Of a stretch of DNA of 64,000 bases, positions 52,603-62,443 are shown one piece after another. Each line of letters begins with the position of its first letter. Positions within the stretch are counted from its first letter, which is position 1. The position numbers and the translations under genes were made by a program. The DNA comes from Anaerolineae bacterium (GTDB taxonomy: Bacteria; Chloroflexota; Anaerolineae; B4-G1; DUEL01): assembly GCA_036172315.1 (NCBI GenBank), contig JASFBC010000093.1:27108-91107 (forward strand), written 5' to 3'. Under the pieces are notes generated by a model that was given only the letters and a program-made list of their open reading frames with translations, was not told where the DNA came from and did not search any database.

Positions 52603-53850
52603 TCAGGATTCGGGGAGGGGCAACAGGATGTGGACGGTTGTTCCAGGCAGGCGCACCTCATCCCGCCCCTCGCTTTCTATCCAGATTCTCCCTTTGTGGG
52701 CCTCAATGATTCCCCGGGCCAGGCTGAGGCCCAGGCCCAGTCCGCCCCCCTTGAAGGCCGTCTTGCTGGAATGGTGGAGTAAGGTCTCCTCCACCACGTA
52801 GAACCGCTCAAAGATGCGCTCCCGCTCCGCTGGATCAATCCCGATACCGGTATCCTGGACGCTCAGATGGATGGTGTGGTCCACCACCCGTCCGGTGATG
52901 CGGATCGTGCCACCGTCGGGGGTATATTTGACCGCGTTGCTGATCACATGCCAGAGGGCCTGGAAAAGCCGCTGGGCATCTGCCATAATTATCGGCAGAG
53001 CCTCCAGTCCTTCAAACTCAAAGGTCAACTGTCGCTCCGGGCCCAGGTTGCGGATGTTGCGCACCACATTCTGGATGAGGGAATTCAGGGGAACGGGGCC
53101 GATGCTCAGTTCCAGTTTGTTGGCCTCAATGAGGAAGACGTTCAGGATGTCGTCCACCACCTGATTCAGGCGGCGGGTGGCCTGCATGACCTGATGGAGC
53201 AGATGACGGGGACTCCCTTCCTCATCCGGGCCGCCAGGGATGTCGGGGATGGAGAGCAGGATCTGGCTGTAGCCATAGATGGCGGTGAGAGGGGTGCGCA
53301 GTTCGTGGCCGGCCAGGATGATGAAATCGGTTTTCATCTTATCCAGCCGTTGGAGTTCGGCGTGGGCCTTCTCCAGTTCGCGGATTTTCCCTTCCAGCCG
53401 CTCCACCAGGCGGCGGCTGTACTCTACCAGATAGTCCGCTTTCTCCTGAGGGGACTCTATCCGTTCCCGCAAGCCGCCCAGGAACGCCTTCACCTGCTGG
53501 GGGAAACGGTCCACATCTATCGGTTTGGGGATGTATCCATCGCATCCCGCGATGAGCGCCCGCTCCCGGTCCCCGCGCAGGGTGGCAGCGGTCACGGCGA
53601 CGATGGGGACGTCTTTCAGTTCTTCCAGCGCGCGCAGCCGGGTGGTGACCTCATAGCCGTCCAGCCCGCTGATGTTGATGTCCATCAGGATGAGGTCGGG
53701 CCGCAGTTGCCGGGCGGCTTCCAGGGCCGCGATCCCATCGGTGACGATGCGCACTTCAAAGCCTTCGGCCTCCAGCACCCGCTGCACCAGTCGGGCGCTG
53801 GAAGGGTCGTCCTCTACATACAGGATGCAGGCGCGTGCGTTTCGGTGCAT
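52603..53850 (-). CDS. Hybrid response-regulator/histidine kinase (REC-HisKA-HATPase)
   Basis: REC motifs (VEDDP; [13 protein letters not shown]; VTAAT), H-box [16 protein letters not shown], and G-boxes [13 protein letters not shown]. Confidence 0.88.
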   Translation of the reverse strand: [415 protein letters not shown]

Positions 53851-53872
53851 GTTCCCCTTCCTCCAAATTTTC

Positions 53873-61800: not shown

Positions 61801-62443
61801 GCAGGTCCTCAGGCCACTCCTCGGAGCGGTCAGCCCGGTGGGCGGTGACGGAGAGGTCCAGGCGCTGGCTCATCCAGTCCAGGAGGTCGGCGTTCAGATA
61901 GCGGCCGAAGACGAGAACACCGCGCGCAGGGCCCCGGTCCTCGGAGGTCAGGATGGGGCGCGCAGTCACCAGGAGGACGCCCTCGGGCAGCAGGAGCAGG
62001 CCGCGCAGCCCCTCTTCGGGGACGCGAGTCAGGACCGGCAGCGCGTCGTAAATCTCCCGGGGGACCGGTGCCTCCTCTGCGGCCTTCAGGTCGTAGGCCC
62101 GGGCCAGGACCACCCGGCCGGAGGCGTGGACGAAGAGCATCAGGTTGAGGTGGGTGTTCAGGAAAGTCTCATCGGTGATGTTGGAGCGGATGTACGCGGG
62201 ATTGACGTCCTCTATGAAGGCGTACGTATCGTCCCAGGAGGCCCAGTCGTGGTTGAGGGTGTCTATAGGCCGCAGTTCGTCCTCCAGGAAAGCCCGGACG
62301 CGGTGGGCATCGTGCTCTGTATCCCGGAGTTCGGCCTCCGCAAAGGCACGCAGGAGGGTCCGGGAGAAGAGCAGGCCCAGCAGCGCCACCAGGAAGACAA
62401 TGGTCAGACCTACAGTCAGTAGAGTACGGGTTCGGAGGGACAT
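55814..62443 (-). CDS. Giant sensor histidine kinase (TM-CHASE4-TM-HAMP, multiple GAF/PAS, HisKA-HATPase), 2209 aa
   Basis: N-terminal TM plus CHASE4-like periplasmic block; repeated GAF/PAS segments. H-box [12 protein letters not shown]; G2 [12 protein letters not shown]. Confidence 0.85.
   Translation of the reverse strand: [2209 protein letters not shown]

Follow-up and report, generated by a model that had tools for sequence, protein, structure and literature searches.

A ThrC-family enzyme fused to a receiver domain adjoins histidine kinase genes across the class Anaerolineae

Which process does a His–Asp signalling locus control when none of its proteins carries a DNA-binding domain? 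The question is raised by three co-oriented genes in a 64,000-nucleotide stretch of DNA from an Anaerolineae bacterium (GenBank assembly GCA_036172315.1, contig JASFBC010000093.1, positions 27,108 to 91,107 of the forward strand), hereafter called the window and numbered from its first nucleotide. Three consecutive open reading frames (ORFs) on its minus strand, at 55814–62443, 54042–55841 and 52603–53850, encode a giant sensor histidine kinase, a ThrC-family enzyme dependent on pyridoxal phosphate (PLP) that ends in a receiver domain (ThrC-REC), and a histidine kinase that begins with a receiver (REC-HK). An earlier note, made from the DNA letters alone, had placed the ORFs at these positions and described them as a REC-HK hybrid, a ThrC-REC and a 2209-residue CHASE4 kinase, and both the ORFs and Pfam bear this out. 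The third-position GC content of the minus-strand genes (0.78–0.83 in a 66% GC sequence) marks them as the coding frames; the long plus-strand ORFs over the kinase gene (for example 56207–60439) were therefore discarded as antisense artefacts of this GC content. As the note had claimed, a DNA-binding output is missing (no match to DNA-binding families in any of the three proteins; Pfam, E ≤ 0.01), so that a metabolic, non-transcriptional output, as it also proposed, is the natural reading. To our knowledge, two-component systems are taught as a sensor plus a transcription factor, and where an enzymatic output is known, it is nearly always a signalling enzyme. We propose that the locus is a His–Asp signalling module whose output is the PLP enzyme, itself the response regulator, a reading to which we give about an even chance. 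The evidence for it lies in the architecture of the proteins, in their intact catalytic and phospho-acceptor residues, and in the class-wide occurrence of the fusion and of adjacent kinases.

The middle gene encodes the fusion itself, with Pfam matches to PALP (E = 8e-61) and Response_reg (E = 1e-19). The GTG start at 55841 assumed in the earlier note has to be replaced: the homologues, in more than 120 clusters, are 551–556 residues long and align from the Met at 55709, so this ATG, which has a GGAG-rich stretch 5′ of it, is most likely the start. The protein (54042–55709, minus strand) thus has 555 residues. Its N-terminus is a four-cysteine zinc ribbon (C11, C14, C27 and C30), followed by the ThrC-family PLP domain (residues ∼76–390) with the Schiff-base Lys113 (nucleotides 55371–55373), a linker of about 40 residues and the receiver (residues ∼435–546). 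The receiver has the hallmarks of its family, with a complete pocket (E439/D440, D484, T514 and K536); the acceptor Asp484 lies at nucleotides 54258–54260.

The enzyme half has its PDB matches among the threonine synthases (2ZSJ, 2D1F and 1UIM, from Aquifex, Mycobacterium tuberculosis and Thermus, respectively; E ∼1e-45 over about 330 residues). It shares with these class II enzymes the fold and the signature motifs PTGSFKDR (with the PLP lysine K113), ASTGN, QAEG.AP and EPA, the first two of which align to 2ZSJ/2D1F and are both present in 81 of 81 orthologues. Unlike them, it adds the N-terminal zinc ribbon and the C-terminal linker and receiver, and its glycine loop reads SGGLGP. The best NCBIfam match is the zinc-ribbon-type threonine synthase PRK08197, at 271.7 bits for a cutoff of 303, and TIGR00260 scores 152.6 bits for a cutoff of 167.1. 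Because both scores are below the curated cutoffs, we describe this half as ThrC-family and a probable threonine synthase rather than a proven member. Database labels of the fusion homologues are ‘pyridoxal-phosphate dependent enzyme’ or ‘threonine synthase’ only.

In an alignment of 81 orthologues, both halves retain their functional residues. The PLP lysine and the STGN loop are found in 81/81 sequences and the zinc-ribbon cysteines in 79–80; in the receiver, D440 is present in 81/81, D484 in 80/81, T/S514 in 80/81 and K536 in 79/81. On average, the orthologues share 69% identity with the window protein in the enzyme domain and 63% in the receiver. Strong purifying selection thus acts on both parts of the fusion. 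An AlphaFold2 model of ThrC-REC, built from a 12-sequence alignment, was not used (mean pLDDT 51, pTM 0.34). A tblastn search for a second ThrC found none in 1.5 Mb of Anaerolineae DNA, which is uninformative at about 20 kb per genome.

The relatives of the enzyme half were collected by an exhaustive search over representative proteins. In addition to fused forms at 51–59% identity, it returned an unfused ThrC relative of 420 residues (56% identity) in a cyanobacterial context and many zinc-ribbon ThrCs of 375–435 residues at 33–48% identity. Proteins of about 615 residues carry the same type of ThrC fused to a LeuA allosteric domain, and those from NC10 are named threonine synthase by NCBI. 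These ThrC–LeuA_dimer fusions comprise P0166, P0179 and about six further representatives of 611–620 residues; P0124/P0125 and L088 are also listed with the LeuA-fused and ThrC-REC-REC forms. A more distant ThrC-REC-REC protein (53% identical) is encoded between an overlapping upstream gene for a 2753-residue multi-GAF kinase and a downstream gene for a single-domain receiver. Judging by these architectures, the ThrC subfamily has gained C-terminal regulatory modules repeatedly. The parallel LeuA-domain fusions favour a receiver that regulates a working enzyme and suggest that this subfamily is a hotspot for gaining regulatory modules.

The gene upstream of ThrC-REC (55814–62443, minus strand; identified by ORF and Pfam) encodes a kinase of 2209 residues. 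Pfam recognizes CHASE4 (E = 3e-39), HAMP, PAS, eight GAF stretches (E = 6e-128), HisKA and HATPase_c. The extracytoplasmic CHASE4 sensor domain (PF05228; nucleotides 61841–62287, minus strand; residues 53–201) scores 134.7 bits for a cutoff of 26.2 (E = 3.1e-39). It is bracketed in the hydropathy profile by two transmembrane helices (residues 5–27 and 266–292), with a cytoplasmic transmitter downstream, as is characteristic of CHASE4 sensor proteins. After the second helix come HAMP (296–342), a GAF-like domain (∼350–515), PAS (522–634), seven tandem GAF domains (∼650–1822), a PAS-like domain (∼1840–1940), HisKA (1952–2014) and HATPase_c (2061–2174). The earlier note's estimate of about 1500 residues of tandem GAF/PAS modules is accurate according to Pfam, hydropathy and the spacing of the GAF ends; indeed, seven ‘...NARLYE...’ C-terminal ends recur about every 167 residues. 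The phospho-acceptor His1961 (nucleotides 56561–56563) is in the H-box SHELRTPL, and the kinase core is most like PnpS/WalK/PhoR in NCBIfam and WalK/VicK and HK853 in the PDB.

The third gene (52603–53850, minus strand) encodes REC-HK, a protein of 415 residues with Response_reg, HisKA and HATPase_c domains (E = 6e-27 for the last). The receiver (residues 9–120; Asp57 at nucleotides 53680–53682) is most like DivK/PleD and is followed by a coiled linker. The kinase core resembles HK853, with His182 of HisKA (nucleotides 53305–53307) in the H-box GHELRTPL and HATPase_c at 291–413. The receiver residues D13/D14, D57, the T in VAVTA and the K in IPKP are kept in a 37-sequence consensus. The N, G1, F and G2 motifs of ATP binding are intact and the HATPase_c domain is full length, which indicates a true kinase and not a passive transferase. 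As expected for histidine kinases, both this protein and the giant kinase exceed the Pfam gathering scores for HisKA and HATPase_c, with N, G1 and G2 motifs visible in the translations and intact H-boxes.

We may then ask whether the three genes belong together. More than 120 protein clusters of ThrC-REC were found at ≥70% identity, from Anaerolineae or Thermoflexia metagenome-assembled genomes. A species-level scan, with one genome per species, gave at least 583 relatives, and the locus counts that follow cover the best 80. All 80 belong to the class Anaerolineae (Anaerolineales, Thermoflexia, Ardenticatenaceae and Caldilineae), and nearly all encode full-length fusions at 56–94% identity, the few cut ones ending at a contig edge. 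The earlier note had named beforehand two checks on its proposal, co-occurrence of the genes in relatives and conservation of the receiver Asp; both came out in its favour, the latter through D484 and D440 (see above) and the former through the closest relatives (L001/L011, L008 and L009), in which orthologues of all three proteins are encoded in an identical order. A co-oriented signalling ORF lies directly upstream of ThrC-REC in 62 of the 73 evaluable loci, with a recognizable kinase core in 59; these ORFs are mostly multi-GAF proteins of 1200–3000 residues. Directly downstream, a REC-HisKA-HATPase orthologue (47–93% identical) is found in 37/76 loci, and in 18 loci its gene overlaps the stop codon of ThrC-REC. 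The upstream multi-GAF kinase and the downstream REC-kinase occur together in 24/80 loci, and at least one kinase adjoins ThrC-REC in 75/80; only one locus among those with both flanks readable has neither. The outer flanking genes vary between lineages. Taken together, the comparison of sequences supports a functional link between the three genes.

A transporter gene of the EamA/DMT (drug/metabolite transporter) type also adjoins the ThrC-REC module, in 52/80 loci. It either follows ThrC-REC directly in the same orientation or lies beyond REC-HK in convergent orientation (for example L006 12939–13871 and L080 12430–13374). The linked EamA protein belongs to the generic carboxylate/amino-acid DMTs and resembles the threonine/homoserine exporter RhtA only faintly. 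The conserved core is thus ThrC-REC itself with a kinase and, in these 52 loci, an EamA transporter.

The window's clade is a derived variant of this module. All the other upstream kinases with an H-box (54 loci) have a near-invariant histidine phosphotransfer and dimerization domain (DHp) of hybrid type, and 47 upstream ORFs have a C-terminal receiver, whereas the upstream kinase of the window and of the three relatives nearest to it has a PhoR/WalK-like core and no receiver. The CHASE4 kinase that the earlier note made the partner of ThrC-REC is accordingly not the conserved one. The EamA transporter was looked for in the window and its clade and is absent; we infer that this clade lost the EamA linkage and swapped the upstream kinase core. 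The receiver of ThrC-REC has a mean identity of 36% to the hybrid-kinase receivers, compared with 29% to the REC-HK receiver, and shares with the former LQKG instead of KP as well as TAKELT. The DHp residues at His+7/+11/+12 are T, T, Y in the giant kinase, T, G, Y in REC-HK and N, G, F in the hybrid kinases; a partner assignment from these specificity positions would be suggestive only. Within the clade, the giant kinase is 60–80% identical, compared with 92–94% for ThrC-REC, so the sensor evolves fast around a constant output. Its orthologues in L008, L009 and L011 are 1998, 2133 and at least 2238 residues long (2209 in the window) and differ by insertions and deletions of whole GAF/PAS modules.

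A known pathway offers a precedent for such an arrangement. In the BphP1–ExsG–ExsF pathway of Rhizobium NT-26/Agrobacterium, the sensor kinase phosphorylates Asp62 in the N-terminal receiver of ExsG; this receiver negatively gates autophosphorylation, and ExsG, a hexameric protein with an HWE-type core, passes phosphate to the separate receiver protein ExsF (PMC3899027). As in that pathway, a REC-first kinase stands beside a sensor kinase and a separate receiver protein, with neither a histidine phosphotransfer (HPt) domain nor a DNA-binding output. The two systems differ in that the REC-kinase described here is of the HisKA type, whereas ExsG is HWE-type and hexameric; the input is CHASE4/GAF rather than a bacteriophytochrome; and the terminal receiver is fused to an enzyme, whereas ExsF is a stand-alone receiver. 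The architecture and the gene neighbourhood agree with the ExsG type; the kinase core, being HisKA and not HWE, does not, and we say that the module works like the ExsG type, not that it is a member of it.

On this basis, the module would work as follows. The membrane-bound CHASE4/multi-GAF kinase would integrate an extracytoplasmic cue with several cytoplasmic small-molecule cues and autophosphorylate on His1961. The phosphoryl group could then pass to Asp57 of REC-HK, gating the second kinase as BphP1 gates ExsG, or directly to Asp484, or to both. REC-HK would be the most likely cognate kinase/phosphatase of ThrC-REC, given the translational coupling of their genes in many lineages; we regard this role as probable. 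Phosphorylated Asp484 may alter the contacts of the receiver with the PLP domain or the oligomeric state of the enzyme, and in this allosteric way raise or lower its catalytic activity, so that sensory input would control, at the post-translational level, the flux from O-phosphohomoserine to threonine (or a related γ/β-replacement). The adjacent EamA-type transporter probably moves the product or the substrate in most other Anaerolineae.

Several observations weigh against this proposal. The ThrC domain scores under the curated NCBI threonine-synthase cutoffs and the PGAP label for the homologues is only ‘pyridoxal-phosphate dependent enzyme’; threonine synthesis is thus only the predicted reaction of ThrC-REC, and the sequences do not permit an assignment of phosphotransfer partners. 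The α1 region of the ThrC-REC receiver is unchanged despite the different upstream kinase core in the window's clade, which weakens the case for the upstream kinase as direct donor. The AlphaFold model is too poor (pLDDT 51) to show a receiver–enzyme interface. Finally, a structured repeat parts ThrC-REC from REC-HK in the window, so that their co-expression is not guaranteed.

The reading of ThrC-REC as a regulated enzyme has to be compared with others. We hold only tentatively the more specific statement that Anaerolineae use their housekeeping threonine synthase as the response regulator, with its flux set by giant multi-GAF kinases. We consider it unlikely that the enzyme is instead a diverged PLP β/γ-replacement enzyme making a non-proteinogenic amino acid or a signalling metabolite, which EamA exports and the kinases switch. 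Cysteate synthase is a diverged ThrC, and a different chemistry would fit the scores under the curated hidden Markov model cutoffs, the tight DMT/EamA linkage (52/80 loci), the variability of E283 and R213 among the orthologues, and the loop SGGLGP, aligned with GNAGN of Aquifex 2ZSJ, which from the fold we take to be the PLP-phosphate loop. On the other hand, the best matches are by far bona fide threonine synthases (E ∼1e-45 in the PDB), cysteate synthase ranks far below threonine synthase in NCBIfam, the nearest relatives, unfused or fused to LeuA_dimer, carry the annotation threonine synthase, and 56–94% identity across the whole class fits a housekeeping enzyme. The enzyme could also be the input of the circuit. 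Its ThrC domain would then sense O-phosphohomoserine, threonine or PLP status and adjust the uptake or loss of phosphoryl groups by its receiver, and ThrC-REC, as a metabolite-tuned phosphate sink or competitor, would set the activity of REC-HK, whose own target would be a response regulator encoded elsewhere. Such a circuit would suit a locus that has two kinases and two receivers but no obvious terminal effector besides the enzyme. In most lineages, moreover, the upstream hybrid carries a receiver of its own, to which the ThrC receiver is most closely related (36% versus 29%), and this is compatible with competition for one phosphodonor. Yet the catalytic residues are invariant, the LeuA_dimer fusions speak for an enzyme that is regulated, not one that regulates, and in the 11/80 loci where REC-HK is the sole adjacent kinase its gene overlaps the stop codon of ThrC-REC, an overlap common in cognate kinase–regulator pairs; we find this alternative improbable.

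The phosphorelay of the earlier note stands insofar as the genes are functionally linked, as conserved synteny indicates; its canonical His–Asp–His–Asp form does not. In that form, the giant kinase would hand one and the same phosphoryl group to the REC-HK receiver, from there to the DHp histidine of REC-HK and on to ThrC-REC. The three co-oriented genes do carry two His and two Asp sites, and proteins resembling histidine kinases, such as ChpT and Spo0B, are able to act as phosphotransferases. However, no HPt family was matched in any of the three proteins (Pfam, E ≤ 0.01) and REC-HK has a complete ATP-binding domain (HATPase_c, E = 6e-27), which makes a canonical relay unlikely. Moreover, the phosphohistidine of ExsG is not passed to its own receiver, which only gates the autokinase (PMC3899027), and many lineages have one kinase only. 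We give such a relay little credence; by analogy with BphP1–ExsG–ExsF, the architecture would be better described as a kinase cascade or a branched two-component pathway. Chance adjacency of three unrelated genes in a kinase-rich genome is, lastly, scarcely credible: multi-GAF kinases are plentiful at Anaerolineae loci, where several may be stacked upstream, but the adjacency, the orientation and often the stop/start overlap are kept in 75/80 species while the outer flanks vary, and this conserved synteny contradicts it.

Receiver-controlled enzymes are known elsewhere. The methylesterase CheB, the diguanylate cyclase PleD and the HD-GYP protein RpfG are receiver-fused enzymes switched by Asp phosphorylation, with non-transcriptional outputs. 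ThrC-REC resembles them in the fusion and, as predicted here, in its non-transcriptional output. They are signalling enzymes with an N-terminal receiver, whereas ThrC-REC is a fold-type II PLP biosynthetic enzyme with a C-terminal one. Threonine synthases with regulatory modules also exist: the plant enzyme activated by S-adenosylmethionine (1E5X/2C2B), which matches ThrC-REC at E = 1.4e-28, joins the catalytic domain to such a module, and the NC10 ThrC–LeuA_dimer fusions belong to the same zinc-ribbon subfamily (33–39% identity to ThrC-REC). In these cases the regulator is a small-molecule-binding extension or domain, whereas in ThrC-REC it is a phospho-receiver with sensor kinases. No description of a ThrC–receiver fusion was found in full-text literature searches, including those on response-regulator output domains. 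Each part is of a known kind, and so are response regulators with an enzymatic output and cascades through a REC-first kinase; a PLP enzyme of amino-acid biosynthesis as receiver-controlled output, class-wide and with giant GAF kinases, is an undescribed variant.

Two repeats lie at the locus. The first, a structured element of 173 nt (53873..54045) with perfect 11-bp terminal inverted repeats (GTAACTATTCA), sits between ThrC-REC and REC-HK, overlapping the ThrC-REC stop codon by 4 nt; its RNA fold has −99.8 kcal/mol (z = −4.9). Elsewhere in the window, the adk–map spacer holds a second full copy (∼7720–7890), about 85% identical, and the secY–adk spacer a partial one (6862–6902), with 97.6% identity over 41 nt. 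The element was not found in 87 related loci and has no Rfam family. It is short, non-coding, bounded by terminal inverted repeats and present in several copies, as dispersed repeats are, and is a genome-specific repeat resembling miniature inverted-repeat transposable elements or repetitive extragenic palindromes. The second is a heptanucleotide tandem array (62453..62543; Tandem Repeats Finder: period 7, 13 copies, 89% matches) with the unit GTGAAA[AC] on the plus strand, which reads TTTCAC[GT] on the coding strand. The array takes up the space between the Dtd gene and the kinase gene and ends 10 nt 5′ of the kinase ATG. Of the two elements said by the earlier note to delimit the locus, the heptad repeat is confirmed upstream of the kinase gene, whereas the MITE-like one is inside the locus. 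Close relatives have tandem arrays of 7–8 nt in the same spacer (L011 3330–3380; L008 616–690), with units that differ between the window and its relatives: TTTCAC[GT], a degenerate unit of ∼8 nt that contains CTTCAC, and ATCCTGC. The window has a further heptad array (GGACGAC ×6), at 43038–43080. These observations suggest that heptamer microsatellites evolve fast in the intergenic DNA of this lineage. A promoter/terminator scan gave signals not enriched relative to shuffles, so the operon structure rests on spacing only.

Upstream of the giant kinase, on the same strand, are a class I tryptophan/tyrosine aminoacyl-tRNA synthetase gene and an ORF of 152 residues (62547–63005) that is 89–90% identical to a protein annotated in relatives as Tyr_Deacylase (Dtd). 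On the other side, the thioesterase noted earlier is a hotdog-fold protein (52031–52498, minus strand; Pfam 4HBT, E = 9e-13; NCBIfam hotdog thioesterase). Its orthologue, 90% identical, directly follows REC-HK in L001/L011, L008 and L010, so that it is a clade-specific downstream neighbour; the thioesterase gene comes after REC-HK in all close relatives, with a gap of 8–14 nt there and of 104 nt in the window. It may be co-transcribed with REC-HK, and no functional link is evident. The decayed LOR/SDH gene beyond it (50640–52030, minus strand) is likewise as the note had it: an AASS-like lysine-ketoglutarate reductase homologue (E = 7.5e-31) interrupted by two frameshifts, a pseudogene if these are real and otherwise a product of indel errors in the assembly. 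Its place is taken by polA in the closest relative. A tRNA-Met(CAT) on the plus strand (50370–50443) is the sole match in an Rfam scan of 50000–64000. A thiamine-pyrophosphate-dependent, acetolactate-synthase-like enzyme is encoded at 48373–50187 (minus strand); the nearness of this branched-chain-pathway-type enzyme to the ThrC-like gene is probably a coincidence, as it is not conserved in L001.

If the more specific reading is true, in which the housekeeping threonine synthase is the response regulator, His–Asp phosphotransfer would directly set the flux through the final reaction of the threonine pathway in these bacteria, and perhaps export by way of EamA too. No earlier case would then be known of a two-component system controlling a PLP enzyme of core amino-acid biosynthesis. 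A receiver-controlled enzyme of the threonine-synthase type would extend His–Asp signalling to the direct post-translational control of central amino-acid metabolism. The activity of the enzyme would moreover offer a simple, assayable read-out for what giant multi-GAF kinases sense. The fusion is kept with kinases in at least 80 species of an abundant class, the Anaerolineae of digesters, sediments and hot springs.

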